Below, piece after piece: positions 5,321-54,693 of a stretch of 64,000 nucleotides of DNA. The notes under the pieces are model-generated. The model saw nothing but the letters and a program-made list of their open reading frames with translations. It was not told the DNA's origin and made no database searches. The number at the start of each line of letters is the position of its first letter. Position 1 is the first letter of the stretch. The translations under genes were made by a program, and so were the position numbers. Source of the stretch: Verrucomicrobiota bacterium (GTDB lineage Bacteria > Verrucomicrobiota > Verrucomicrobiia > Chthoniobacterales > Terrimicrobiaceae); the NCBI GenBank assembly GCA_026398255.1, contig JAPLTG010000007.1, forward strand, positions 41,786 to 105,785, written 5' to 3'.

Positions 5321-5816
5321 AAGCGCGTGAAAGTAATATGATCGGAAAATTCAAAAGAAAACTTAAATCGCGCAACAATCGATGATCGCCATGCCGAGCA
5401 GTTCGTGCTTGGCGCCGAATCGATAACCAACCAGGGGCATATGCTCCGTCATCACCCAAGTTTCAAACGCGTAGCGCCGTTTCATAAAGGGATAAAAACA
5501 ACCCCGAATCCGAAGGAAATCCAAACCTAGGCAAGCCCCTTTTTAATTTGCGGGATTCTTTCCCCTTTTCAAGAACGAGCACTTGATCAGTCACATTTTT
5601 ACTGGGAACGCCGAGGTCCTCCTAAACAGGAATGAGTAAACCGAGCATTCGAATCAAAAAAGCGAGGAAATGCGGGGCTGACCCTTTTCATTATTCCTCA
5701 AGCAATAATAAAGATTCTGAGAAATATTTGAATGTGTGAGGCCGATCCTTTTGAACGGCTTTTTTCTCAAAAAGGTGATGAAACGCGGCTGACCCCTTTT
5801 CTTGTTAAGAATTCAT

Positions 5817-6008
5817 GCCCGACCCCTTTCGCTGAAATTGTAGCGGCTGTCTATGACTGCCGATCTTCGCGCCTTCCTTCAGGTTTTGGCTGCACAAACA
5901 ACTCCCACTCCGGCAAAGCCAACGAGGACGTTGGCGCTCCTGCCGAGCTTGGCTATCCCTCCTCGAATTGACCAAATGTCAAGAATTAATGCCCGACCCC
6001 TTTGACCT
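5817..6008 (+). repeat. Copy A of a ~190-bp dispersed repeat, bounded by ATGCCCGACCCCTTT-like ends
   Basis: About 90% identical by eye to 6509-6697. Contains the hairpin GCCAACG-AGGA-CGTTGGC and the TTGTAGCGGCTGTC motif. The motif GCCCGACCCCTTT occurs at both ends (5817 and 5991). Confidence 0.8.
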
Positions 6009-6035
6009 TTGATCAACACTTTTTAGAATTTCGGT

Positions 6036-6215
6036 TTATTCTTTTGTGAGATCTCTTAGTATTTTGCGAGCAAGCAACTCGTTTATCTCGTTATGGCGCG
6101 GAATTGGCTGTGTAGCTCCCGTTCGTGGGTTGTGATAAATGTCGTGTTTGCCTCCATGTCGCAAAAGCACCGCACCGGCAGATTCGATCTTGGAAATCAA
6201 ATCTCGTCTTTTCAC
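6036..6215 (-). CDS. hicA: Type II toxin HicA-family mRNA interferase (59 aa, not in the ORF track, GTG start)
   Basis: Own translation: VKRRDLISKIESAGAVLLRHGGKHDIYHNPRTGATQPIPRHNEINELLARKILRDLTKE*. This matches the classic HicA/YcfA pattern (KRRDL...GG.H..Y.NP......PRH.EI). The GTG overlaps the hicB stop as GTGA (6212-6215). Confidence 0.8.
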   Translation of the reverse strand: MKRRDLISKIESAGAVLLRHGGKHDIYHNPRTGATQPIPRHNEINELLARKILRDLTKE

Positions 6216-6403
6216 GCCAATTCCAATTCCTCTACTTTTTTGATTCCGAGAATCGCGCTTGTTGAGAAAGTGTCATAAAGATCGCGAAGGTGATCTTTAA
6301 GGTCTTGAAATGACTCCCCCTGTGTCCAATGGTCCGGATAATCATTCAAGTAGCCGAGAAACCTTCCATCTTCCACCCGCCAGTAGGTAAATTTTGTGGT
6401 CAT
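6212..6403 (-). CDS. hicB: HicB-like antitoxin (63 aa, UPF0150-type N-terminal domain only)
   Basis: Sequence MTTKFTYWRVEDGRFLGYLNDYPDHWTQGESFQDLKDHLRDLYD resembles HicB/UPF0150 partners. It is translationally coupled to the HicA ORF. Confidence 0.65.
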   Translation of the reverse strand: MTTKFTYWRVEDGRFLGYLNDYPDHWTQGESFQDLKDHLRDLYDTFSTSAILGIKKVEELELA

Positions 6404-6508
6404 AAATCTAATCTAACCACTCGAAGGGCTAATGTCATTTATTTTTTGCCAAACTATGTTCCTCACAAAGATTTTTTACCTCTCAAGGCTTGCAAAATAT
6501 GTTAAAGC

Positions 6509-6697
6509 GCGGGGCCCTTTCGCTGAAATTGTAGAGGCTGTCTATGACTGCCGATCTTCGCGCCTTTCTTCAGGTTTGGGCTGCACCAACAACTCCCACT
6601 CCGGCAAAGCCAACGAGGACGTAGGCGCTCCTGCCGAGCTTGGTTATCCCACCTCAAAATGCCCAAATGTCATTAATTATTGCCCGACCCCCTTGAC
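6509..6697 (+). repeat. Copy B of the ~190-bp dispersed repeat
   Basis: Aligns end to end with 5817-6008, same orientation. The two copies flank the hicB-hicA pair. Confidence 0.8.
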
Positions 6698-7012: not shown

Positions 7013-8038
7013 AGGGGTCAGTCCCACATATTGACATATTTTCAGTTTCAGCGAGGATTTTTTCCATGGCTAGACAACTGAGAGTCGAATACGCGGGAGC
7101 GATTTACCATGTGATGAGCCGGGGGGACCGGCAGGAGTCGATCTTTTGGGATGAGGAGGATCGGCGGCGGTTTTTGGGGACGCTTGGGGAGGCTAGCGTG
7201 CGGGACGGTTGGCAGGTGCATGCGTATTGCCTGATGGGAAATCATTTTCATCTGGTGCTGGAAACTCCCCAACCCACGCTGGTGGCGGGAATGAAGTGGT
7301 TTTTGGGAACCTACACGCAGCGCTTCAATGCGCGGCACCGGTTGCGCGGGCATCTCTTTGCGGGGCGCTACAAGTCGCTGCTCGTGGATGGCTCGGACGA
7401 CATGTATTTGCGGGTGGTCTGCGACTATGTGCATTTGAATCCAGTGCGGGCGGGGTTGATTGCGGCGGATGGGAAATTGGCGGACTACGCTTGGAGCAGT
7501 TTCCCGGAATATTTGAAGGAGCCCGATCAACGGCCCGGGTGGTTGCGTGTGGATCGGCTGCTGGGGGAGATGGGTATCCAGCGGGACGATGCGACGGGAC
7601 GGCGGGAGTTTCAGGAAACGATGGAAGCGCGGTGTCGCGCGGAGGGGCATGCGGACGAGGAACTCTGGAGCGCAATCCGGCGGGGATGGAGATTTGGCGC
7701 GGAGGATTTTCTGGAGAGGTTGATGGAGACCGAGGCGGTGGCAGGCGCGAACCGGGAGATTCACGAAGGAGGGGCGGCGGCTGAAACGATGGAGGAAAAA
7801 GCGCGGCGTCTCATCGTGGAGTTTCTGGAAAAAAGGGGGACGAGGCTTGAGGAGTTGCGCGCACGAAGCAAGGGCGATGCGCTGAAAATCGAGCTGGCTG
7901 GGGAACTCAGAAAAAATACAGCGATGTCGATGGCTTGGATCGCGAATGAACTCCACGCCGGCGCTCCGAACAGCGTGTGGAATGCGCTGGCGAAGTGCAG
8001 GAGGAGCCAAGATGTGTGAATATGTGGGACTGACCCCT
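7013..8038 (+). mobile_element. IS200/RAYT-like unit: HUH-Y1 transposase gene bracketed by perfect 20-bp inverted repeats
   Basis: AGGGGTCAGTCCCACATATT (7013-7032) is the exact reverse complement of AATATGTGGGACTGACCCCT (8019-8038). The right arm overlaps the last base of the transposase stop codon. Confidence 0.75.
7066..8019 (+). CDS. IS200-like / REP-associated tyrosine transposase (Y1 HUH) with a C-terminal helix-turn-helix-like extension
   Basis: Contains AIYHVMSRG, the HUH motif GNHFHLVLE, and the catalytic-Tyr region CDYVHLNPVRAGL. At 317 aa it is longer than minimal RAYTs. Confidence 0.8.
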   Translation: MARQLRVEYAGAIYHVMSRGDRQESIFWDEEDRRRFLGTLGEASVRDGWQVHAYCLMGNHFHLVLETPQPTLVAGMKWFLGTYTQRFNARHRLRGHLFAGRYKSLLVDGSDDMYLRVVCDYVHLNPVRAGLIAADGKLADYAWSSFPEYLKEPDQRPGWLRVDRLLGEMGIQRDDATGRREFQETMEARCRAEGHADEELWSAIRRGWRFGAEDFLERLMETEAVAGANREIHEGGAAAETMEEKARRLIVEFLEKRGTRLEELRARSKGDALKIELAGELRKNTAMSMAWIANELHAGAPNSVWNALAKCRRSQDV

Positions 8039-13348: not shown

Positions 13349-13353
13349 ACTCG

Positions 13354-13378
13354 CGCAGAGGCGCAGGGACGCAGAGAG
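13354..13378 (+). repeat. Left arm of an inverted-repeat bracket (CGCAGAG-triplet type)
   Basis: CGCAGAGGCGCAGGGACGCAGAGAG. It matches the reverse complement of 13768-13793 at 22 of the first 23 positions. Confidence 0.8.
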
Positions 13379-13385
13379 TTTTGAA

Positions 13386-13799
13386 ATGAGCGAAAACGAG
13401 ATTGGGACAATTGTGATTGAGGAAGCGATCCAACTTCACCGGGAGCTTGGCCCGGGTTTGTCCGAGTCCGTTTATGAAGTCGTCCTTGCGGATTCTCTCA
13501 AAAAACGCGGCTTGGATGTGCGCAGGCAAGTGCCCGTGCCAATCCATTATCAGGGCATCAAATTCGATGAGGGATTTCGCGCCGATCTCATCGCGGAAAA
13601 CAAAGTGCTTCTCGAACTCAAATCCGTGGAGGCCGTGAATCCAGCCCATAAGAAACAGGTGCAGACCTATCTGCGGCTGACTGGATTGAAGCTCGGCTAC
13701 TTGCTCAACTTCGGTGAGGCTATTCTGAAAACCGGCATTACCCGATGTGTCAACGACCTTGAAGAATCTCCTCTGCGTCCCAGCGCCTCTGCGGGATAA
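13386..13799 (+). CDS. GxxExxY family protein (PD-(D/E)XK nuclease-like fold)
   Basis: Contains GPGLSESVYEVVL (GxxExxY), then ...FRADLIAENKVLLELKSV...YLRLTGLKLGYLLNF. The last ~10 codons are read from the right repeat arm. Confidence 0.8.
   Translation: MSENEIGTIVIEEAIQLHRELGPGLSESVYEVVLADSLKKRGLDVRRQVPVPIHYQGIKFDEGFRADLIAENKVLLELKSVEAVNPAHKKQVQTYLRLTGLKLGYLLNFGEAILKTGITRCVNDLEESPLRPSASAG
13768..13793 (-). repeat. Right arm of the inverted-repeat bracket
   Basis: CTCCTCTGCGTCCCAGCGCCTCTGCG. A near-identical arm occurs at 52231-52257. Confidence 0.8.
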
Positions 13800-13812
13800 T
13801 CCTTTTCACCAC

Positions 13813-22968: not shown

Positions 22969-23181
22969 TTACTTTTTCTTAACCGCTTTTTTGGCGGCTG
23001 GCTTTTTAGCGGCGGCTTTTTTGGCCGGGGCCTTAGTCACCGCTTTTTTGGCGGCTGGCTTTTTGGCGGCGGCTTTTTTGGCCGGGGCCTTAGTCACCGC
23101 TTTTTTGGCGGCTGGCTTCTTGGCGGCGGCTTTCTTTGCTGGGGCCTTTTTGGCCGGAGCTTTCTTCTTGGCAGTAGGCAT
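22969..23181 (-). CDS. Histone H1-like Lys/Ala/Pro-rich nucleoid protein (70 aa)
   Basis: Starts MPTAKKKAPAKKAPAKKAAAKKPAAKKAVTKAPAKK... A good SD lies upstream (GGGGGAGATTAATG). Start moved to the ATG at 23181. Confidence 0.7.
   Translation of the reverse strand: MPTAKKKAPAKKAPAKKAAAKKPAAKKAVTKAPAKKAAAKKPAAKKAVTKAPAKKAAAKKPAAKKAVKKK
22982..23150. repeat. 57-nt tandem repeat (~3 copies) inside the histone-like gene
   Basis: Units 22982-23038 and 23039-23095 are nearly identical, each encoding TKAPAKKAAAKKPAAKKAV. The third copy is diverged. Confidence 0.8.
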
Positions 23182-40118: not shown

Positions 40119-40125
40119 AAAATGA

Positions 40126-40219
40126 TTAACCACAGAGGACACAGAGAGCACAGAGGGCTAAAAAACATGAACTCCCAACTCCTCTTCTTCTCCGTGTCCT
40201 CCGAGCTCTCCGTGGTTAA
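40126..40219. repeat. CACAGAG-triplet inverted-repeat hairpin (degenerate copy)
   Basis: Left arm TTAACCACAGAGGACACAGAGAGCACAGAGG (40126-40156). Right arm CTTCTCCGTGTCCTCCGAGCTCTCCGTGGTTAA (40187-40219). The outer TTAACCAC/GTGGTTAA pair is perfect and the inner part is about 70% complementary. Confidence 0.7.
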
Positions 40220-40240
40220 GAAATCCTCACAGAGATAACC

Positions 40241-45308: not shown

Positions 45309-45345
45309 GTCCAGCCACTCAGGCGCCAAGCCAAACTCAACAACT

Positions 45346-45382
45346 CAGCCGGGTTCGCAAGAACCCGGCTGTTTTGTTTCTT
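45346..45382 (+). terminator. Rho-independent terminator of groESL
   Basis: Perfect 11-bp stem CAGCCGGGTTC-GCAA-GAACCCGGCTG followed by TTTTGTTTCTT. Confidence 0.75.
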
Positions 45383-45619
45383 CCCTCGTAGCGGAATTCG
45401 AAACGACTTTCGAAGGCGGTCCGAAGTCTGCCGGAATGTTGTAGCCGCCCCACTCCGGTGGGGCGTATCGAGCGGCTGCGCCGCGATGCGTGGCATGGAA
45501 TGTGAAAGAACAGTCGTTGAGACATTCCAGCGATTAGCGCAGGCGCTCTTTCGCTAGAACGGCACGCCTTGCCGCTTGCCTTCGCGGCGGCTCGGGGTTT
45601 TTCTAGCACTCTTACGCCT

Positions 45620-47730: not shown

Positions 47731-48459
47731 ATGCCTTCGTTGAACGACCGCGACATGGTTCGGCTCCAAGCTGAGGAATTCGAGTCCGCCAGCTTGCGGG
47801 AAATCCTTGGGTGGGCCTGGGAAACCTTCGGCGAGCGCGCGGCCTTTGGAACAAGCTTCCAAGGGGCTGGCCTCGTTGCCATGCACACGGCCTACACGAA
47901 CGGATTCCGCTTTCCCGTTTTCACCATCGACACGGGCCTGCTTTTTCCCGAGACGCTCGAATTGAAAACGCAGATCGAATCGCGCTTGGGTTTCACGATT
48001 GAATCCCTGCACCCCGAACAAACCGTCACCGAACAGGCCGCCGAACTCGGTCCCGAGCTTTGGAAATCCAAGCCCGATCTCTGCTGCTCGCTTCGCAAAG
48101 TCATTCCACTCCAAAAAAAACTCGCCTCGCTTGATGTCTGGATCACCGGCCTCCGCCGCCAGCAAAACGACACGCGGGAGAACATCCGGATCGTCGAGCT
48201 CTACCACTTCGATGTCCTGCGCGATCGCTACATCATCAAATTGAATCCCATGGCCTCATGGTCCCGCGATCAAGTGCAGGCCTACATCCGCGAGCACGAC
48301 TTCCCCGTCAACGCCCTCGCCGCGCGCGGCTATCGTTCGATCGGTTGCCAACCCTGCACACGCCCCGTCGCCGACGGCGAAAGCGAGCGCGCCGGCCGCT
48401 GGACCGGCTTCGACAAAAGCGAATGCGGCATCCACACCTTCCTCGGGAGCAATATTTGA
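47731..48459 (+). CDS. cysH: Adenylyl-/phosphoadenylyl-sulfate reductase (thioredoxin-dependent, Fe-S type)
   Basis: Contains VFTIDTGLLFPET, the CC...CxxC cluster Cys residues (DLCCSLRKV, GCQPCT) and a terminal ECGIH. Confidence 0.88.
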   Translation: MPSLNDRDMVRLQAEEFESASLREILGWAWETFGERAAFGTSFQGAGLVAMHTAYTNGFRFPVFTIDTGLLFPETLELKTQIESRLGFTIESLHPEQTVTEQAAELGPELWKSKPDLCCSLRKVIPLQKKLASLDVWITGLRRQQNDTRENIRIVELYHFDVLRDRYIIKLNPMASWSRDQVQAYIREHDFPVNALAARGYRSIGCQPCTRPVADGESERAGRWTGFDKSECGIHTFLGSNI

Positions 48460-48473
48460 CGCCGACCGAGGGA

Positions 48474-48586
48474 TTGACCACAGAGGACACAGAGAGCACA
48501 GAGTTTTTCTAACGGAATTGTTTTATGCGAAATTCCTCCCTCAAAGCTCTTCTCCCCTCCGTGTGCTCTGTGTCCTCTGTGGTCAA
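48474..48586. repeat. CACAGAG-triplet inverted-repeat hairpin (best-preserved copy)
   Basis: TTGACCACAGAGGACACAGAG (48474-48494) is the exact reverse complement of CTCTGTGTCCTCTGTGGTCAA (48566-48586). The arms continue imperfectly inward to 48503 and 48557. Confidence 0.85.
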
Positions 48587-48595
48587 TTCTTCTAA

Positions 48596-49285
48596 ATGAT
48601 CCTCGAGCTTTTGGAGTGGGCAGTGACACCCTGTCCGTGGTTCGCGCGAAGGAATGGATTGCTCGCCGCTCAGATTGGCATTCGCCATCGCGTGAAACGC
48701 TGCCGAGCGACTTGGAATGGACATCTGGAGGCATGCAGAAAATTTGTCGCCGACGCAGTCGGATCCAGAACTGCTGACGAAAACCTCGTGATTCTCGGGA
48801 GTGGACACCTGAACGATTTCGACCTCGCATTTCTTCAACGCCGTTTTCAAAAAATCACGCTCGTCGATGCGCTCCATCCGATCGAAATTCAAATCCAAGC
48901 GAGTCTTTCCCGAGGCCGCCTTCGCCTGATCACGACCGATCTCTCCAGCCCCACCGCCGAGATCGAGGATTTGGTTTCGCGTTCGAGTTGGACCATTTCA
49001 AGCTGCCTGCTTTCCCAGCTCCCGCTCTTTTCCAATGAGGACTCCCCCGCCCTCTTCGATCGACACCTTGCGCTTTTGCAAAAATCTCCCCGCGCCGTGC
49101 TCATCAGCGATGTCGCGAAACGCCTCGGCTCCGCCCCTTGGGAATCATTGATCGAAAACCATCCCCTCCCCCACCCCGCCGCCGAGTGGTCATGGCTCAT
49201 CTCCCCGCCCGGCGAGTCCGTCCCCGATCCCGAAGAACGCCTCGTCCAAGCCTGCTTGATGCACTCGGACCCTTCAGACAGTTGA
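48596..49285 (+). CDS. Hypothetical protein (229 aa)
   Basis: Long ORF with host-like GC and no family recognised. Its last ~30 codons have a diverged duplicate at 52455-52544. Confidence 0.55.
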   Translation: MILELLEWAVTPCPWFARRNGLLAAQIGIRHRVKRCRATWNGHLEACRKFVADAVGSRTADENLVILGSGHLNDFDLAFLQRRFQKITLVDALHPIEIQIQASLSRGRLRLITTDLSSPTAEIEDLVSRSSWTISSCLLSQLPLFSNEDSPALFDRHLALLQKSPRAVLISDVAKRLGSAPWESLIENHPLPHPAAEWSWLISPPGESVPDPEERLVQACLMHSDPSDS

Positions 49286-49290
49286 TCTCC

Positions 49291-49316
49291 CGCAGAGGCG
49301 CATCGATGCAGAGGGG
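49291..49316 (+). repeat. Left arm, CGCAGAG-triplet type, bounding the low-GC island
   Basis: CGCAGAGGCGCATCGATGCAGAGGGG. It shares CGCAGAGGCGCA...GCAGAG with the arm at 13354 and starts 5 nt after the stop of the 48596 ORF. Confidence 0.7.
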
Positions 49317-49811
49317 AGATTTTGGGTTGGGAGTTTTTCGATGGCCGGAATTCAATTTAATATCTGGTCCACCTGTAAATGTCCTATCGGCATTTTTAGG
49401 ATGTCGGCCGAAATGATCTCTCGATTCCTCCAAAAACTCGGTCGCGCGATCCGCCAATTTCTCCCCCCAAGCCGCTCTGCAAGGGACTCCCCTCACCAAT
49501 CTGAATTTCGCTTTTGAACCATTAACACAACTTCCACCCAGTCGGCGATCGCAGGAAAATCTCCCGCTTAGGCGCAGGAATCTTGAGTGATGGGCCCCCT
49601 ATCTCAATAGTCCCCGCCGAGCGGACCCAAGTTTCAAGCGCGAACACTCCATTTCTTTTCAATCTCCCGCTGAGCACGCGAGGTGCAGAGGAAGGGATTT
49701 TCGAATTGTCCAAGATTTTGCGTGGCTGCACCGGTGCCCTTAATCAAAAAAAATCTTGTGATTCCAGAAATCCCACACATAAACTGCTGTTATTAAGCTT
49801 AACCGGAATAC

Positions 49812-50276
49812 ATGTTCACCTACCGCGATAAACAATCAACTCGTCACAGCCGCATACGATCTTTTTTGAAAACCGATCCGTTTGTGGCAGTGATTCTATC
49901 GGCTATCGATTTTGAATGGACAGTCCGGAGGGCGATCCTAGGTCTCTCAGGATTGCCCACAAAACCAATTCATGAAATTTTCAAAAGTGAGCGTTCAGGC
50001 GGTCTCTCTGGACTCCAAAATCACTGGAAAAAGCTTGTCAAGTCGCGGCTCGGCTCCGATCTCGCATCGATCGTCCCCAACTGGGAATTTTTTTCTAATC
50101 GTGCCTTTGGGTTAAGAAATAAGTTAGTCCATGGAGCTGAGGGCAGAGTTACCCCAGAGCATGCAGGGAAAATCGTTGATTCGATTCTCGCCGGTTCAGT
50201 TGCTGTTGCGAATTATGCCGAAGCTAACAATGCGACCATCTTTGGAAAGAAAATCAGGCGCTTGAAGACCAGATAA
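49812..50276 (+). CDS. Hypothetical protein, putative HEPN-fold (Rx4H) domain
   Basis: 154 aa and predicted helical by composition. It contains AFGLRNKLVHG, with R102-x4-H107 (nt 50115-50132), the spacing of the HEPN RNase motif. The assignment rests on this motif only. Confidence 0.5.
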   Translation: MFTYRDKQSTRHSRIRSFLKTDPFVAVILSAIDFEWTVRRAILGLSGLPTKPIHEIFKSERSGGLSGLQNHWKKLVKSRLGSDLASIVPNWEFFSNRAFGLRNKLVHGAEGRVTPEHAGKIVDSILAGSVAVANYAEANNATIFGKKIRRLKTR

Positions 50277-50303
50277 TCATAAAATCTGAAATTCGATTTC
50301 TCT

Positions 50304-51812
50304 ATGAATAACATCCTATCCATTTGCATTTTACTAGTATTACAAGCTTCGCTTCTATTTTCCCAGACGCCTTGGCAGGACTTCGTTAATGAGCAGAAAA
50401 CCAAAGCAGATGCTGGGGATCCAGATGCTCAAGGGATTTTGTCTACTTTAATTCAGCTCGGAGCCGCTTCTGTATCAAATGATCAAGCTTACTACCTTGC
50501 AATAAATTCTACAAATGCCTCAAGTTCTTTTGGTAAATATGCCCTTGGGCGTTGTTATGAATTAGGCATCGGAGTAGACAAGAATGACTTAAAGGCCCAC
50601 GATTTGTTTACCCAGTCAATTCCAAATCTTAAAAATATGGCAGTCCAAGGAAATTCATATGCTGCCTTTCTGATTGGAGGAGCTTATCTTAAAGGTCGCG
50701 GAGTTGACAAAGATGAGACTGAATCAGACAAATGGTTTTTAAAGTCTGCTGAAGATGGTAATGCGTTCTCCCAATATAACATTGGAAAGACCTACCAAGA
50801 AGGCCAAGGAGTAGAAAAAGACCCTGCTGCATCGGCTAAATGGATGCAATTATCAGCTGAAAATGGATATAAGCTTGCTCAAGTAGCATTAGGTGTTTAC
50901 TTTAATATTGGATATGGCGTCGCTAAAGATGATACCGAAGCTGCAAAGTGGTTTCACAAAGCAGCCGAGCAAGGGGATGCAAATGCACAAAGTAGCTTGG
51001 GCTTTTGCTACCAATACGGCAAAGGGGTATCAAAAGACGATGCCAAGGCTCTTAAATGGTATCTCAAAGCCGCTGAGCAGGGAGATGCGCTACATCAATC
51101 AGCTTTGGGCCTATATTATTCTAATGGAGGTGGATTAAAAGAAACTGACAATATGGAATTTGCTACTAAATACCTTGCCCAAGCTAGAGAAGAGGCTGTA
51201 AAGTGGTTTCGCAAAGCTGCAGAGCAAGGAAATTCGGGAGCTCAAAATAACTTAGGTGCATGCTATAAAGATGGCAAAGGAGTTCAAAAAGACATTACGG
51301 AAGCTATCAAATGGTTCCAAAAATCAGCTGAACAGAATGACCCTCATGCTCTAACTAATTTGGGAGATTGTTATTTTGAAGGCGTAGGTTTCCCAAAAGA
51401 TTTAGAAGCAGCAGAAAAATACTATCGTAAGGCAATTAGCCAAGGTTTTAGTGAAGCTGAAAAAAAACTTAATAAGATACCTTCAATACGGAGCCAGAAA
51501 ATTAAGGAAAATATTATTGATGCTAAGAAGAGGTATATGGAAATGGCAATTGACGATGCGCCTGTCCTCTCATCTGGACCATCAAAAGAAGTTATTATTG
51601 ATGGAATGTTGCCTTTATGCAGTGTTTTAGAAAATCAATATAAAGACACTTCATTTAAAATCCAGCGTGGCAACACTCAAATATCTAACGGCTACAAAGG
51701 TATTCCAATTGGTGTGGAAATGTTTCCAATCAGATTAAGTGGCTCCCAAATACAATTTACATATTATTTCTATCAAGATGAATTCGATGATTGGAAAATT
51801 GTAGAAAAGTAA
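50304..51812 (+). CDS. Secreted Sel1-like repeat (SLR/TPR-family) protein with an unassigned ~110-aa C-terminal domain
   Basis: Signal peptide MNNILSICILLVLQASLLFSQ, followed by about 9-10 Sel1 repeats (e.g. AKWFHKAAEQGDANAQSSLGFCYQYGKGVSKDDAKALKWYLKAAEQGD). Confidence 0.85.
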   Translation: MNNILSICILLVLQASLLFSQTPWQDFVNEQKTKADAGDPDAQGILSTLIQLGAASVSNDQAYYLAINSTNASSSFGKYALGRCYELGIGVDKNDLKAHDLFTQSIPNLKNMAVQGNSYAAFLIGGAYLKGRGVDKDETESDKWFLKSAEDGNAFSQYNIGKTYQEGQGVEKDPAASAKWMQLSAENGYKLAQVALGVYFNIGYGVAKDDTEAAKWFHKAAEQGDANAQSSLGFCYQYGKGVSKDDAKALKWYLKAAEQGDALHQSALGLYYSNGGGLKETDNMEFATKYLAQAREEAVKWFRKAAEQGNSGAQNNLGACYKDGKGVQKDITEAIKWFQKSAEQNDPHALTNLGDCYFEGVGFPKDLEAAEKYYRKAISQGFSEAEKKLNKIPSIRSQKIKENIIDAKKRYMEMAIDDAPVLSSGPSKEVIIDGMLPLCSVLENQYKDTSFKIQRGNTQISNGYKGIPIGVEMFPIRLSGSQIQFTYYFYQDEFDDWKIVEK

Positions 51813-52230
51813 ATAACCGGAACCAGCTGTTGGGGACTTTTCGAGTAAAGGCTTATGTCCTTCACATTGTCATATTTTGTAGATGCTCTGAAAGCAGGAT
51901 AGCCAAAAAACATTCGCAGAAATTACGGTGTGGGAGTTTCTTTCTGCCATAAACTCCCAATTTCTCGCCCGTCCGACAATTCAACCCTCCAGTAAATCAC
52001 CCAGAGGGACGATGCCGATGCGGGACGAGGTTTGGCCGTGGATGATTGTGCCGCAGCGGTCGTCGACATTTGTGCACACAGCCTCCCGCTTGTCGGGTGC
52101 GGAGCGGAGGTGGGGTCCGCGTGCGGCTGATTATGCGTGAGCGTGGTCAGCTACATGTCATTTTTTCAGGAGACCTTTATGAGTGGATGCCGTCCAGCGT
52201 GGGAAAATCGTAATGTGTTACCATAATTCC

Positions 52231-52257
52231 CCTCCGCGTCCCAGCGCCTGCGGGAGG
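52231..52257 (-). repeat. Right arm, CGCAGAG-triplet type, bounding the low-GC island
   Basis: CCTCCGCGTCCCAGCGCCTGCGGGAGG. The stretch GCGTCCCAGCGCCT is identical to the arm at 13768, and its reverse complement pairs imperfectly with 49288-49316. Confidence 0.7.
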
Positions 52258-52454
52258 AGTTGGTTTGTTTGAGACGGCGCTTTTTCCCCCTTAGCCTTGG
52301 GTCCGCTCGGCGAGCCTCCCCTACCCAAGGCTTTTCGATTCGTGCTGATCGCTGTTAAAAATGCACCGGATTCCAACTCACTCCGGCGCTTATTTACAGC
52401 GCTGAGGCCATTTCAATCATTGTGTATAAACTTCGTATTTTGCTTCGTGTGAGG

Positions 52455-52544
52455 GTCCCCTCCCCCATCCCTGCCGCCGAGTGGATGTGGACGATCACTC
52501 CAATTAGTGAGTCTGGCCTGCTGGCCAAAGAGCGCATTGTCTAG
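52455..52544 (+). pseudogene. Relic of the 3' end of a paralog/ancestor of the 48596..49285 gene
   Basis: Own translation VPSPIPAAEWMWTITPISESGLLAKERIV* against HPLPHPAAEWSWLISPPGESVPDPEERLV in the intact gene gives about 15/29 identical. Shared DNA stretches are TCCCCTCCCCCA and GCCGCCGAGTGG. In-frame stops lie upstream. Confidence 0.55.
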
Positions 52545-52646
52545 GCTTTCGTGATAAGGGCCTGAAAAGAATTTCGCTGGTTTTTCCCGAAAAGTCAGTA
52601 TGAGTTTGTAATGACCCCCTGTTCAACAAACACAATCTATCACAAA

Positions 52647-52976
52647 ATGAGTTATATTTATTTATCGATTGCCGTTCTAGCGGAGGTGGCGGGGACATCG
52701 TTTCTCAAGGCCACGGAGGGATTCACGAGACCGGGTCCAACGGCGTTTGTTCTTGTCGCTTACGGTCTGGCTTTTTGGATGTTGTCTTTGTCCTTGAAAA
52801 CCATGGCGGTGGCGATTGTCTATGCGCTCTGGTGCGGCGCGGGGATCGTGCTCATAGCCGTCATTGGCTGGTTTGTTCTCAAGCAACCACTGGATGTTCC
52901 CGCGCTGATCGGGATTGGTTTGATTCTGGCCGGGGTGGTCGTGATCAATCTCTTTTCCTCTTCGGTCCGTCATTAA
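52647..52976 (+). CDS. SMR-family small multidrug/quaternary-cation efflux protein (EmrE/SugE-like)
   Basis: 109 aa with 4 TM segments. Starts MSYIYLSIAVLAEVAGTSFLK with the conserved membrane Glu. Start moved to the ATG at 52647. Confidence 0.85.
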   Translation: MSYIYLSIAVLAEVAGTSFLKATEGFTRPGPTAFVLVAYGLAFWMLSLSLKTMAVAIVYALWCGAGIVLIAVIGWFVLKQPLDVPALIGIGLILAGVVVINLFSSSVRH

Positions 52977-52991
52977 CAATTCCCCCCACCC

Positions 52992-53768
52992 TTGCCAATG
53001 AGCGCGGATTTTTTTTCGGCCGGATCCTCGGACTACGCGAGATACCGCCCGCGCTATCCTGAGGATTGGTTCGATTGGCTTGCCGCTCAGTGTTCCGTGC
53101 GGAGTTTGGCGTGGGATTGCGCCTGCGGGAGCGGTCAAGCCACCGAGGAATTGGCGCGCCGGTTCGAAAAAATCATCGCGACCGACGTCAGCTCCGCCCA
53201 ACTCCGGAATGCTCCCCTCCTCCCGAATGTCGAATGGAGATTGGCTTCCGGCGAAGCGAGTGGATTGGATGCCAGGAGTATCGATTTGGTAACGGTCGCC
53301 CAAGCTCTCCACTGGCTGGACCTGCCGAGGTTTTGGCATGAGTGCCGTCGCGTTTTGAAGCCCGAGGGGATTATCGCGGTCTGGGGCTATGGCATCGCGA
53401 GCTTGAGTCACCCATCGGTCAATCAGGTTTTCCAGGATTTCTATCACGGAGTGGTTGGCGAATATTGGCCGAAGGAACGCCGGATCGTCGAAGAGGGCTA
53501 TGTGGGCGTCGATTTTCCATTTCAAGAAATCCCTGGGTCGGCCTTTGAGATGGTGCAATCTTGGGATGTCGAGCATCTCGCGGGATACTGCTCGAGTTGG
53601 TCCGCCACAGACCGCTACCGCAAGGCAACGGGCCATGATCCGATCCCTGAGTTGAGGGCGAAACTGACGCGAGAACTTGGTTCTGCAACCACTCAAATCC
53701 TCTGGCCGTTCTTCGCTAGAGCCGGCCGAATGTTCCATGTGGAACAAAACGCAGAAGAAGAAAATTAA
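52992..53768 (+). CDS. Class I SAM-dependent methyltransferase
   Basis: Motif I is AWDCACGSGQATEEL and the post-II region is VAQALHWLD...LKPEGIIAVWGY. The C-terminal tail and the stop codon lie in repeat elements. Confidence 0.8.
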   Translation: MPMSADFFSAGSSDYARYRPRYPEDWFDWLAAQCSVRSLAWDCACGSGQATEELARRFEKIIATDVSSAQLRNAPLLPNVEWRLASGEASGLDARSIDLVTVAQALHWLDLPRFWHECRRVLKPEGIIAVWGYGIASLSHPSVNQVFQDFYHGVVGEYWPKERRIVEEGYVGVDFPFQEIPGSAFEMVQSWDVEHLAGYCSSWSATDRYRKATGHDPIPELRAKLTRELGSATTQILWPFFARAGRMFHVEQNAEEEN

Positions 53769-53860
53769 CCACGGAGGGCACGGAGGGCATGGAGAATGAA
53801 GGAAGAATTGCCTTCGCTGTCTTGATTTTCCTCTGTGCTCTCGGTGTCCTCTGTGGTCAA
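53765..53860. repeat. CACGGAG/CACAGAG-triplet inverted-repeat hairpin
   Basis: Left arm TTAACCACGGAGGGCACGGAGGGCATGGAG (53765-53794). Right arm CCTCTGTGCTCTCGGTGTCCTCTGTGGTCAA (53830-53860). The TAA stop of the methyltransferase (53766-53768) lies inside TTAACC. Confidence 0.75.
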
Positions 53861-53875
53861 ATCCTCGTTTAACCC

Positions 53876-54337
53876 ATGAATCCCACGCTCCATGTCGTTC
53901 TCGTCGAACCCGAAATCCCACCGAATACGGGCAATGTGGCGAGGCTTTGCTTGGCGGTCGGGGCGCGTCTGCATCTCGTGGGGCCGTTGGGATTTTCCTT
54001 GGATGAAAAGGCGCTCCACCGCGCGGGAATGGATTACTGGAAGGAATGCGATGTGAGGCTTTGGGATTCCTTTGAAACTCTCCGTGCCGAAGCAGGCGAG
54101 GGGTCGAGGTTTTGGTTTTTTACAACGAAGGCCAAGCGGGGCTTATGGGAGGGGGAATTTCAGAAAGGTGATTGGTTGGTTTTCGGAAGGGAATCGAAGG
54201 GTTTGCCCGAATCGCTGCTTCATGCGAACGCGGAGTCGTGCCTGAGAATTCCAATGCGAAGTGAGGCCCGCAGTTTAAATCTGGCGACCTCGGTTGGGAT
54301 CGGTGTTTTCGAGGCATTGCGGCAGGGGGCTTATTGA
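53876..54337 (+). CDS. trmL: tRNA (cytidine/uridine-2'-O)-methyltransferase TrmL (SpoU family)
   Basis: Contains LHVVLVEPEIPPNTGNVARLC...LVGPLGF...FGRESKGLP...SLNLATSVGI. Confidence 0.88.
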   Translation: MNPTLHVVLVEPEIPPNTGNVARLCLAVGARLHLVGPLGFSLDEKALHRAGMDYWKECDVRLWDSFETLRAEAGEGSRFWFFTTKAKRGLWEGEFQKGDWLVFGRESKGLPESLLHANAESCLRIPMRSEARSLNLATSVGIGVFEALRQGAY

Positions 54338-54364
54338 CCACAGAGAACACAGAGTTCACAGAGG
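54334..54364 (+). repeat. Solo CACAGAG-triplet arm
   Basis: TTGACCACAGAGAACACAGAGTTCACAGAGG. The trmL TGA stop (54335-54337) lies inside TTGACC. I found no partner arm before secA. Confidence 0.7.
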
Positions 54365-54693
54365 AGGGGAAGGGAGGGTTTTTGCGGATTCGGGTGTTCC
54401 ATTTGAAACAAGTCGGGAATTTTATGGAGATCGAGAAAAAACCGAGGCCCTAAAATGGCAGGGAAGGGCTGTTTCTCGGAAATGGAAGGGGGTATGTGCG
54501 GAAGCGGGGGTCGCACAGTTTTAGGGCGATTTACGGCGAATTAGAAAGGGGTCGGTTTTTCGGGTGTATTTTGTAGCCACCCCACTCTGCTGGGATGCAA
54601 ACGGGTGGCATTGTTGGGAGCGGCTCGTGGAACGGCAGAGGACTGCCGTTTCTACAACAGAGTGGTTTGTTCCATGTGGAACAAATTCCGAGA

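Follow-up and report, generated by a model that had tools for sequence, protein, structure and literature searches.

The window, by which we mean the whole 64-kb stretch of DNA analysed, carries an island between ORF229, a conserved hypothetical gene of mosaic sequence (48596-49285, + strand), and an SMR efflux gene (52647-52976, + strand; Pfam Multi_Drug_Res, 1e-26). The island holds two cargo genes on the + strand, ORF154 (49812-50276) and a gene for a Sel1-repeat protein (50304-51812), and an inverted pair of ARM repeats lies near its two ends.

The low-GC core of the island, at 49701-51900 (no strand), has a GC content of 0.408, compared with 0.571 ± 0.041 elsewhere in 500-nt windows, and its lowest 500-nt window reaches only 0.346 (z -5.5). 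The tetranucleotide correlation of the core is 0.04, against a median of 0.89 elsewhere. Third codon positions are A/T-rich, with GC3 values of 0.30 in the Sel1 gene and 0.47 in ORF154 and of 0.62-0.75 in the neighbouring genes. The first-pass annotation had described a sharp drop to about 40% GC across 49.75-51.85 kb between the arms together with A/T-rich third positions, and had called for sliding GC and tetranucleotide profiles, for a comparison of the cysH-to-SMR interval in relatives and for family searches on the two cargo proteins. The profiles bear out both descriptions. Low GC is nevertheless confined to about 2.2 kb of the 2.9 kb between the arms, and the segments 49288-49700 and 51900-52257, which lie inside the arms, have a GC content of about 0.54-0.56.

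An abrupt compositional jump could in principle be an artefact of assembly or binning, in which low-GC DNA of another organism was fused to the contig. We regard this as scarcely credible: the island sequence is identical in two independent assemblies of different runs (SRR20698652 and SRR20698644), locus L001 covers both island junctions and L002 the left one, and L023, an independent lineage, has this module at this site as well. The last observation also means that low GC is no sign of a recent arrival, because the module of L023 is just as low in GC.

The earlier annotation had seen no integrase, transposase or tRNA. For the island this stands, as Pfam, NCBIfam and PADLOC searches returned no integrase or transposase among its ORFs, and the 64-kb window contains no tRNA. 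The other window ORFs scanned also lack a recombinase or integrase, but a gene for a RAYT-like Y1 transposase does lie in the window at 7066-8019 (PF01797, 37.8 bits; NF047646, 50.3 bits, under the cutoff of 80). Six related islands contain no integrase, and neither a recombinase nor a transposase is among the precomputed Pfam families that are listed for gene calls in related islands. No viral relatives of the island were found, and it has no phage genes.

The two cargo genes

ORF154 belongs to an unannotated family of proteins of about 155 aa that probably have a HEPN-type fold. An exhaustive profile search collected 394 representative clusters of the family. The pair R102-x4-H107 is near-invariant, both residues being at least 90% conserved in 70 members, and the AF2 model of ORF154 is all-helical (pLDDT 80.5); motif and model together agree with the HEPN hallmark, R-x4-6-H within an all-alpha four-helix core. 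The PDB matches with the best TM scores in Foldseek are HEPN proteins, namely 2hsb (prob 0.85, TM 0.54/0.65) and Csm6, at E-values of about 2. PF18735 (HEPN_RiboL-PSP) matches 3 of 70 family members weakly, with E-values of at least 0.013, and a PDB sequence search with ORF154 gave no match. Three weak lines of evidence, the Foldseek matches (E about 2), the Pfam matches (E 0.013) and the conserved motif, thus indicate that ORF154 is probably HEPN-like.

The second gene encodes a 502-aa protein with seven Sel1 repeats (Pfam Sel1, 1.7e-68). Its signal-peptide-like N-terminus predicts secretion, and the protein diverges rapidly between lineages: in the ORF154-Sel1 module of L023, ORF154 is 88% identical to that of the window and the Sel1 protein only 43% (aa). 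The family searches on the two proteins yielded Sel1 repeats and a putative HEPN-like family. The same module also occurs in L025, a contig of uniformly about 39% GC, where it adjoins McrBC and where no ARM, H or TED repeats are present. For the pair, a role in toxicity or defence is the most likely one, an assignment that we make with low confidence.

The deviant composition, the absence of the island from 11 related loci and the occurrence of the same module in a contig of about 39% GC without these repeats all argue that the low-GC DNA is foreign to the lineage of the window, as the first-pass annotation had proposed. We infer that the module came originally from a low-GC organism.

Tail classes of ORF229 and exchange of the island block

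ORF229, the target gene of the hotspot, has no Pfam match. A homolog search gave 118 homologs, and the close orthologs fall into two classes according to their C-terminal tails. The comparison of the cysH-to-SMR interval revealed an empty site in 11 distinct related loci, where an ORF229 ortholog of 224 aa with a class I tail is followed by the SMR gene after 57-87 nt. Occupied sites with a class II tail were found in the window, L007/8, L016, L018, L022, L023, L024 and the P0022 contig. Across 17 distinct loci, a class II tail always goes with an occupied site, and a class I tail always with an empty one.

Compared with the empty sites, the insert extends from a conserved core of ORF229 to position 52455. 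This core is a 35-nt, att-like sequence, GAAAACCATCCCCTCCCCCACCCCGCCGCCGAGTGG (49158-49192, + strand), that is near-invariant in both allele classes. It is followed by a surrogate class II tail (49193-49285, + strand; ...SWLISPPGESVPDPEERLVQACLMHSDPSDS) that forms the working C-terminal end of ORF229. Beyond the island, at 52456-52565 (+ strand), lies a displaced and decayed class I tail with an in-frame stop, here termed copy B, which sets the right island junction at 52455|52456; this junction is also found in L007. A direct duplication of about 105 nt of the ORF229 3' end thereby flanks the extra DNA at about 49265-52455. The L003 gene aligns with its 3' end at two places, 49160-49264 and 52456-52560, and tblastn recovers aa 190-224 of ORF229 again at 52458-52562 (46% identity, E 7e-4). 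The two copies of the core differ by one substitution and a 1-nt insertion over about 28 nt.

The identity profiles change abruptly on both sides of the island. Within ORF229, sliding identity is class-I-like at 48596-48805 and 49046-49192, and class-II-like at 48806-49045 and from 49193 onwards. Before the core, identity is 0.90-0.95 to class I and 0.70-0.79 to class II, whereas after it the values flip, at 49192|49193, to 0.64-0.76 and 0.90 respectively. The segment 49152-49260 is 92.7% identical to L023 at the nucleotide level, compared with about 78-83% for the gene body. On the other side, the SMR gene up to about 52780 has an identity of 0.85-0.88 to L023 and 0.78 to L003, and beyond this point 0.94 to L003/L013 and 0.79 to L023. 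The stretch from about 49193 to about 52760 is class-II-type DNA in a class-I-type flank and was therefore exchanged as a block. The exchange, by homologous recombination, covered about 3.6 kb, and its crossovers lie in the ORF229 core at 49158-49192 and inside the SMR gene at about 52740-52800. Included in the block are the surrogate tail, the island, the remnant of the old tail, a spacer and the first 110-130 nt or so of the SMR gene. Because class I and class II relatives are about equally distant in the left flank (TKT, cysH), the polarity could also be the reverse: the class-I-like flanks may have been brought in around a class II block that was already there.

The direct duplication, the crossover inside the conserved core and a copy B that begins exactly at the core would equally be produced by an e14-like site-specific integration in situ, in which the genome displaced its own class I tail and imported nothing later by homologous recombination. 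We judge this very improbable. Copy B and the spacer after it have a 7-nt deletion and several substitutions in common with the remnant in the class II lineage L023, and not with functional class I tails. Copy B is about 70% identical to class I tails, compared with 90% for the adjoining flank, and class-II-like sequence runs past it into the first 110-130 nt or so of the SMR gene; an integrase is likewise missing. These alignments show that copy B travelled together with the island.

Alternatively, the occupied state could be ancestral, the empty class I alleles having arisen by deletion between the tail copies, so that nothing was acquired here. Recombination between direct repeats is reversible, as in the excision of e14 between its tail copies, which yields a chimeric icd-icdC gene (PMC13626634), and the island architecture is common to the window, L023 and L007. 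The class I tail is, however, intact, conserved and scar-free at all 11 empty sites, and the right flank of the window is very close to the empty-site loci L003 and L013 (SecA, 98.8% aa). Moreover, the sharp breakpoints on both sides denote recombination between diverged alleles, whichever its polarity. Ancestral occupancy is accordingly quite improbable in our assessment. The mechanism, which the first-pass annotation had been unable to name, can now be named in part as a probable old Campbell-type integration followed by block exchange.

Repeats at the cassette junctions

The left outer ARM (49288-49317, + strand) contains TCCCGCAGAGGCGCATCGATGCAGAGGGG at 49288-49316, two bases downstream of the TGA stop of the ORF at 48596-49285, and the right arm, at 52231-52257, reads CCTCCCGCAGGCGCTGGGACGCGGAGG as its reverse complement. 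The 14-mer GCGTCCCAGCGCCT is found exactly at 52236-52249 and at 13775-13788, and with up to two mismatches it has four matches in the window compared with 0.83 expected. ARMs are built of direct CGCAGAGG sub-repeats. Pairing of the outer arms yields -49.0 kcal/mol, against -21.7 ± 3.6 for shuffled sequences (z -7.6), and the arm pair around the GxxExxY gene yields -54.1 kcal/mol (z -8.6). The inverted arms that the first-pass annotation had described are thus real, and they belong to the same family as those around the GxxExxY gene.

As limits of the island, the arms did not hold up: judged by the empty sites, the insert overshoots the left arm by about 95 nt and the right arm by 198 nt. In a transposon, IS or MITE, the terminal inverted repeats coincide exactly with the ends of the DNA that varies in presence, and this class was rejected for the island on these grounds.

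Between the arms, the framework segment (49318-49614, no strand) is conserved and not low in GC. A degenerate ARM (49562-49588) and the opening 34 nt of ORF163 lie within it, and its identity over 49364-49616 is 85-88% to L022, L023 and L018 and 81% to L007. Positions 49583-49617 match the start of ORF163 in L023 and L007, and the alignment then skips to the 17-mer H, CGCCGAGCGGACCCAAG. ORF163 is a cassette gene that has been deleted in the window, and the deletion junction is the 5' edge of H. H occurs exactly at 49615-49631 (+) and 52296-52312 (-), coupled to a further, degenerate arm at 49662-49690 and to the right arm, respectively. The left H-ARM boundary unit (49615-49700, + strand) accordingly consists of H, a small hairpin with a T-run and the degenerate ARM. 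The right unit (52231-52372, - strand) consists of the right ARM, a spacer, H and conserved upstream hairpins, and it is 80-84% identical to two units of L007 (10904-11043 and 11929-12229). Of the 12 copies of H over six distinct lineages, 11 are exact and the twelfth (L023, 15373-15389) has one mismatch. All 12 copies lie within the ORF229 hotspot, and elsewhere in the 277 kb compared the sole match, at L022 40-56, has two mismatches. The RNA fold of the right H-ARM unit is as stable as that of shuffled sequence (z -0.26), and no attC-like fold beyond shuffled sequence was found in H-ARM units (z -0.06 to +1.17). At conserved positions between genes, TED, an A-rich cousin of ARM, forms hairpins of very high stability (z -10). 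The spacer between the Sel1 gene and the right unit (51813-52230, no strand) is conserved with L023 and L007 over its last 90 nt or so; in L023 and L025 its position holds a gene for a 60-aa membrane protein.

The cargo of the hotspot differs among L007, L022, L023, L024 and the P0022 contig. In other lineages the cassettes are mostly toxin-antitoxin (TA) pairs of ParE, PIN and PhdYeFM types, next to small ORFs, and in L007 they lie on both strands. The left outer ARM is orthologous to the ARM at 8693 of L007, where two direct ARM copies enclose a ParE-type TA cassette; the window has one ARM there, which marks a recombination junction relative to the ARM-TA-ARM arrangement of L007. In these alignments, the junctions of the cassettes coincide with ARM repeats and with the composite H-ARM unit, and the ARMs form a REP-like repeat family that marks cassette or recombination junctions.

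The GxxExxY mini-cassette (13349-13812, + strand; TIGR04256, 2.9e-39) is a discrete insertion of 464 nt that is bracketed by ARMs at 13351-13377 (+) and 13770-13796 (-), only 3 and 16 nt from its junctions. It is lacking in L026-L028, in which an ATGA overlap joins the DUF1295 and CFA-synthase genes at the position of the cassette. CATGA is present at both junctions, a pattern that could also stem from selection for intact stop and start codons.

This mini-cassette invites the reading that the island is itself, or was until recently, a discrete mobile element, ending at its two ARMs and moved in the same way by an ARM-recognising enzyme. Such an element would be in keeping with the strong complementarity of the ARM pair, with the orthologous outer ARM pair of L007, inside which all variable cassettes lie, with the TA cassette between direct ARM copies and with the RAYT-like transposase encoded in the window. 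We nevertheless hold it to be unlikely. The extra DNA passes both ARMs when set against the 11 empty sites, and the aligned position of the left ARM is occupied in L022 and L023 by a TED repeat. A convincing target duplication is also lacking: the sequences beside the ARMs have only AGTTG in common, and its right copy is part of the conserved H-ARM unit. Finally, the island has no transposase, and the RAYT-like gene is flanked by repeats of the AGGGGTCAGYCC type, neither ARM nor TED. The latter finding also led us to reject ARM and TED as the REPs of this RAYT.

History of the hotspot and known systems

In our view the island probably represents the occupied allele at a hypervariable hotspot for cassettes, which lies at the ORF229 3' end in freshwater Chthoniobacterales-type Verrucomicrobia and was shaped by Campbell-type entry, cassette turnover and block exchange. 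An integrative element would first have entered through a single Campbell-type crossover in the core of about 35 nt. It would have brought a homologous class II surrogate tail and so kept ORF229 intact, while the native class I tail was pushed to the far side of the element and decayed there. No integrase was found at the ORF229 site in any lineage, so the case for this origin is drawn from the architecture; the recombinase may since have been lost or may act in trans. As the comparison between lineages shows, small cassettes then gather and turn over between the outer inverted ARM pair. ARM-dependent movement of these cassettes is still conceivable, since the outer ARMs pair as those of the GxxExxY cassette do and all variable DNA lies between them. 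Lastly, the class II block from about 49193 to about 52760 was exchanged by homologous recombination in the genome of the window.

A more speculative proposal, which we put forward as a doubtful possibility, is that ARM, TED and H-ARM are the recombination sites of an undescribed cassette-mobilisation system of Verrucomicrobia with a trans-acting enzyme, and that the hotspot is its natural array. Cassettes would be inserted, stacked, deleted and possibly inverted at these sites, with GxxExxY PD-(D/E)XK genes, toxin-antitoxin pairs and the HEPN-like/Sel1 module as cargo. The ARM stems might also enable processing or insulation of transcripts by the host, which would make insertion harmless even between translationally coupled genes. 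The outcome would be integron-like with neither attC nor IntI and, if the proposal is true, would represent a new way to build gene-cassette arrays.

The locus offers a dissected example, from uncultivated freshwater Verrucomicrobia, of a foreign module that seems to have been fixed at a hotspot and then spread among related genomes. The proposed sequence of events is an old integration that rebuilt the end of a host gene, followed by block transfer, and both crossovers are mapped to within tens of bases. It also provides three leads: a conserved, unannotated and putatively HEPN-like family of about 400 clusters that travels with a fast-evolving, apparently secreted Sel1 protein in defence-type neighbourhoods; the ARM/TED/H-ARM repeat family at cassette junctions; and a 464-nt GxxExxY cassette placed precisely at an overlapping stop/start codon.

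Several known systems resemble parts of this locus. Integrons carry IntI, attI and Pc beside an array of co-oriented, promoterless cassettes, and their attC sites, 57-141 nt long, are imperfect palindromes with a hairpin fold. Like integron, CALIN and pdif (Xer) arrays, the hotspot contains short cassettes, often toxin-antitoxin pairs, with recurring boundaries and no adjacent recombinase. The hotspot differs from integrons by lacking IntI, by boundary units without an attC-like fold and by cassettes in both orientations, and from pdif modules in that ARMs are made of direct CGCAGAGG sub-repeats, whereas a dif-like core has inverted half-sites. In REP/REPIN-RAYT systems, the RAYT gene is flanked by the same REPs that are dispersed in the genome. 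The stable TED hairpins at conserved intergenic positions and the RAYT-like gene of the window are reminiscent of these systems, and the ARM pair around the small GxxExxY ORF recalls the stem around an ORF in 23S rRNA IVS. However, the repeat of the RAYT-like gene is AGGGGTCAGYCC, and the ARM pair of the island spans 2.9 kb.

The closest parallel in gene architecture that we can draw is with e14 and phage 21 in E. coli icd, where the element supplies a replacement 3' end and leaves an icdC fragment (PMC13626634; Hill et al. 1989 cited therein). Both cases combine an insertion in the 3' end of a protein-coding gene, a homologous but non-identical surrogate and a displaced original at the far end; the island has direct repeats of the 3' end with an intact gene and a site that is empty in relatives. 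The tyrosine or serine recombinase near the att site is absent from the island. The cryptic prophage e14 is 15 kb long, encodes its own integrase and is excised upon SOS induction, whereas the island measures 3.2 kb and holds exchangeable small cassettes. CIMEs are defined as keeping functional attL and attR sites and lacking integration and transfer genes (PMC5704250). Tandem CIME/ICE/IME accretion at att sites is similar to the island in its att-like repeats with a target-gene end, its want of integration and transfer genes and its lineage-dependent accreted content. It differs in that a related ICE or IME carrying a matching integrase was not found and that the core of copy B has already diverged.

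Chromosomal HGT hotspots and flexible genomic islands are reportedly exchanged by homologous recombination in flanking core genes, as is said to have been described by Oliveira et al. in 2017 and by Rodriguez-Valera and colleagues. The ORF229 site resembles them in its single core-gene interval, in its lineage-specific accessory cargo, much of which is toxin-antitoxin or defence-type, and in breakpoints that lie in the flanking core genes. Unlike these hotspots, it also has a gene-tail duplication and internal boundary repeats, ARM and H-ARM.

Low-GC island and its arms

The region carries cysH (47731-48459), the conserved gene ORF229 (48596-49285, plus strand), ORF154 (49812-50276), a gene for a 502-aa Sel1-repeat protein (50304-51812) and an SMR efflux gene (52647-52976), together with genes for a methyltransferase, a SpoU methylase and SecA. 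Neither ORF229 nor ORF154 belongs to a named family. The first-pass annotation had described a sharp drop in GC between two inverted arms. Our sliding-window check confirmed a strong dip (GC of 0.408 in 49701-51900 against 0.571±0.041 elsewhere; minimum z of -5.5), but low GC covers just ~2.2 of the 2.9 kb. The tetranucleotide correlation of this low-GC core measured only 0.04 against a median of 0.89. The reported A/T-rich third codon positions were also recovered, with GC3 at 0.30 in the Sel1 gene and 0.47 in ORF154, compared with 0.62-0.75 in their neighbours. Deviant composition and absence from most relatives support the proposed foreign origin.

The arms themselves lie where they had been placed. 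The left arm, TCCCGCAGAGGCGCATCGATGCAGAGGGG, begins at 49288, 2 bases past the TGA stop of ORF229, and the right arm occupies 52231-52257, with the reverse complement CCTCCCGCAGGCGCTGGGACGCGGAGG. They are of the same type as those around the GxxExxY cassette: the window holds four copies of one family, which form two convergent pairs (13351/13770 and 49288/52231), and a 14-mer common to both right arms, GCGTCCCAGCGCCT, is exact at 52236-52249 and 13775-13788. The pairing potential of the island arms is -49 kcal/mol (z -7.6 versus shuffles), near that of the GxxExxY pair (-54 kcal/mol, z -8.6).

As had been noticed, we detected no integrase or transposase in the island and no tRNA in the window. 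A recombinase search extended to the ORFs of related islands likewise gave no integrase or transposase. ARAGORN found neither tRNA nor tmRNA in the window, and thus there is no tRNA-type att site. Rfam yielded nothing at gathering threshold across the whole window and nothing at E<=1 for 49150-52700, and a scan for consensus promoters and terminators gave no more matches than shuffled sequence.

Occupancy, boundaries and exchange of the inserted DNA

ORF229 has 118 homologs, and a freshwater Verrucomicrobia MAG encodes an identical protein. The island sequence is identical in two independent run assemblies, one covering both junctions (L001) and the other the left junction (L002), and is therefore not an assembly artefact. 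At 11 distinct related loci (L003, L004, L005, L006, L009/L021, L010, L011, L012, L013/L020, L014 and L017) the site is empty, with the ORF229 ortholog followed by SMR after 57-87 nt; the island is thus missing from most relatives. Elsewhere, ORF229 is followed by an Unstab_antitox/ParE pair, ORF163, a 70-aa gene and a PIN_3 pair (L007/L008), by 98-aa and 75-aa ORFs (L022), by a 98-aa ORF, ORF163, ORF154, a 569-aa Sel1 protein and a 60-aa membrane protein (L023), by a PhdYeFM-type pair (L024) or by a DUF6364/PIN pair (the P0022 contig). The site downstream of ORF229 is a cassette hotspot.

The ORF154-Sel1 module of L023 is equally low in GC (0.34-0.47). Its ORF154 is 88% identical to that of the window at the amino acid level, the Sel1 protein only 43%; the module is therefore an old resident with a fast-diverging Sel1 gene. 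Two genes present in L023 have been lost from the window: ORF163, of which the first 34 nt persist at 49583-49617, and the 60-aa gene.

A second variable spot in relatives (L005, L007, L009, L022-L024) is the groEL-transketolase interval, which is short in the window (~45310-45568) and contains, depending on lineage, PIN toxin-antitoxin pairs, an EF-hand protein, an AAA_14/DUF4143 gene or other genes. In L007/L008 (12229-12500), a class II lineage (tail classes are defined below), the SMR and methyltransferase genes are missing, and a TED hairpin and SpoU (75% identical in amino acids to that of the window) stand almost directly past the right junction of the island. This points to a deletion or replacement beside the hotspot.

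The arms had been taken to bound the inserted DNA; instead, they sit inside the insertion, 95 nt (left) and 198 nt (right) from its boundaries. The last ~105 nt of the empty-site gene align twice in the window, at 49160-49264 and at 52456-52560. Similarly, a tblastn search with ORF229 found residues 190-224 again at 52458-52562 (46% identity, E 7e-4), with an in-frame stop. Orthologs carry one of two C-terminal tails: class I proteins have 224 aa and end in ...EWLWTIAPAGESGPLAEERLVHAFVMNG, and class II proteins have 229-230 aa and end in ...EWTWLIAPPGESGPEPEERLVQACLMQSDQTES. The site behind a class I tail is always empty and that behind a class II tail always occupied. ORF229 of the window joins a class I body to a class II tail, and a class I tail persists in decayed form at 52456-52565. 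It follows that the extra DNA spans from the near-invariant core of ORF229 to 52455.

When ORF229 is compared in sliding windows with six genes of class I and five of class II, identity switches at 49192|49193, the end of this 35-nt core, GAAAACCATCCCCTCCCCCACCCCGCCGCCGAGTGG (49158-49192). Upstream, identity is 0.90-0.95 to class I and 0.70-0.79 to class II; downstream, it is 0.64-0.76 and 0.90, respectively. A second class-II-like patch at 48806-49045 means that recombination in ORF229 has been recurrent. On the right, the sequence is L023-like up to ~52740-52780 inside SMR (0.85-0.88 versus 0.78 for L003), past which it becomes L003/L013-like (0.94 versus 0.79). With breakpoints on both sides, class-II-type DNA thus fills the block from ~49193 to ~52760 within class-I-type flanks, which is the double-crossover signature of homologous recombination. 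A 7-nt deletion and several substitutions in the displaced tail and spacer recur in the remnant of L023, a class II lineage, but not in functional class I tails. The tail remnant moved along with the block, which explains why its identity to class I tails is only ~70%, compared with 90% for the flank. Which way the exchange went is not fully certain, since the left flank is about as far from class I as from class II.

Repeats at cassette junctions

The arm repeat, ARM (TCCCGCAGAGGCGCWGGGACGCAGAGG), is a GC-rich variant of TED (CCACAGAGGACACAGAGAGCACAGAG), an A-rich element that folds into very stable hairpins between genes, at sites conserved in relatives. In the window, inverted TED copies ~30-55 nt apart occur at 40124-40225, 48468-48592 (z -10), 53763-53867 and 54332-54365, and the SpoU gene has TED elements on both sides. 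Just past the ORF229 stop, some lineages carry ARM and others TED in the same alignment column. A 17-mer, H (CGCCGAGCGGACCCAAG), lies ~40 nt from the right arm and again ~40 nt from a degenerate inner left arm (49662-49690), forming composite H-ARM units. Of 12 copies of H from six distinct lineages, 11 are exact and the twelfth (L023 15373-15389) has one mismatch. All 12 fall within the hotspot, and the sole other match in the 277 kb examined has two mismatches (L022 40-56). H-ARM units form small terminator-like hairpins only, with no significant global fold. An attC-like structure was ruled out (z about 0), as was coding by the H unit (a 51-aa ORF, 52297-52452), whose copies differ by 1-nt indels. 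A tRNA-like reading of H (GCCGAGCGG, resembling a D-loop) was considered and dropped. In a viral collection, the 35-nt core and ARM had no matches and H had one chance match inside an unrelated CDS.

Cassette junctions coincide with ARM or H-ARM repeats. In L007, two direct ARM copies enclose a 780-bp toxin-antitoxin cassette at a position occupied by one ARM in the window, and the ORF163 deletion in the window stops exactly at the 5' edge of H. The window and L007 have orthologous outer ARM pairs, which enclose all of the variable DNA.

The second ARM pair encloses the GxxExxY gene (TIGR04256, PD-(D/E)XK-like). In L026-L028, which lack this insertion, the DUF1295 and CFA-synthase genes overlap at ATGA; exactly at that overlapping stop/start, the window has a 464-nt insertion (13349-13812) with CATGA at both junctions and ARMs 3 and 16 nt from its ends. 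The insertion resembles a small mobile cassette that an operon has tolerated. No second copy of the protein was found within the ~290 kb examined, and a literature search on GxxExxY brought up nothing on its flanking repeats. ARMs at cassette junctions and around this insertion thus link the repeat to cassette mobility.

The sole transposase-like gene in the window encodes a RAYT-like Y1 protein (7066-8019, 317 aa) with an IS200-like Y1 domain (PF01797, 37.8 bits); against the REP-associated tyrosine transposase model NF047646 it scores 50.3 bits, below the cutoff of 80. The gene is flanked by a 30-nt inverted repeat, AGGGGTCAGTCCCACATATTGACATATTTT (7013-8038). A link to ARM/TED was ruled out: the repeats are not shared, and the flanking family is different. 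Motifs related to the RAYT-flanking repeat, G[GC]C[TC]GACCCCTTT, recur at 5675-6690. Two 183-nt direct repeats (5824-6006 and 6515-6697, 92% identical) enclose a gene for a HicA toxin (6036-6215, minus strand; PF07927, E 2.6e-10) and its 63-aa partner upstream (6212-6403), in a patch of mildly low GC (5824-6697, z about -2.6). The pair is a further toxin-antitoxin cassette with flanking direct repeats. At 22982-23167, three full tandem 57-nt repeats and a fourth, overlapping partial copy (ACCGCTTTTTTGGCGGCTGGCTTTTTAGCGGCGGC...) would encode, read on the minus strand, an alanine/lysine-rich, histone-H1-like tail.

Cargo and comparison with known systems

PADLOC matched neither ORF154 nor ORF229; NCBIfam gave no match for ORF229 and only a weak, sub-threshold one for ORF154 (E 0.02), and PDB sequence searches with ORF154 returned nothing meaningful. 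ORF154 belongs to an unannotated family of ~155-aa proteins (394 representative clusters) in which R102-x4-H107 is near-invariant and which has no relatives in the viral collection. Its AlphaFold2 model is all-helical (pLDDT 80.5). The best PDB matches by TM score are HEPN proteins, namely 2hsb (prob 0.85, TM 0.54/0.65) and Csm6, with E-values that are not significant, and HEPN_RiboL-PSP matches 3 of 70 family members weakly. In L025, an ORF156-Sel1(563 aa)-60 aa module adjoins McrBC on a contig of uniformly ~39% GC that contains no ARM, H or TED repeats, a setting consistent with a donor background of low GC and with a defence-island context for the module. A toxin or defence role for ORF154-Sel1 is proposed with low confidence. 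From lineage to lineage, the Sel1 gene varies sharply both in sequence and in its number of repeats (502, 563 and 569 aa); its internal 144-nt direct repeat (50937-51335, 70% identical, 255-nt spacing) represents the Sel1 repeat units themselves.

Taken together, an old e14-like integration probably rebuilt the end of ORF229; cassettes then turned over at ARM and H-ARM repeats, and the block was later exchanged via homologous recombination. Apart from the repeat system at the cassette junctions, the region fits two known kinds, being both a genomic-island hotspot and a decayed integrative element. The TED elements resemble REPINs. The island shares its architecture with prophage e14 in icd: there, the incoming element brings a replacement 3' end, and the icdC fragment is what remains of the old one (PMC13626634). 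Unlike for e14, an integrase or transposase was found neither here nor in any related island, and the nearest named category is a CIME-like remnant (PMC5704250).
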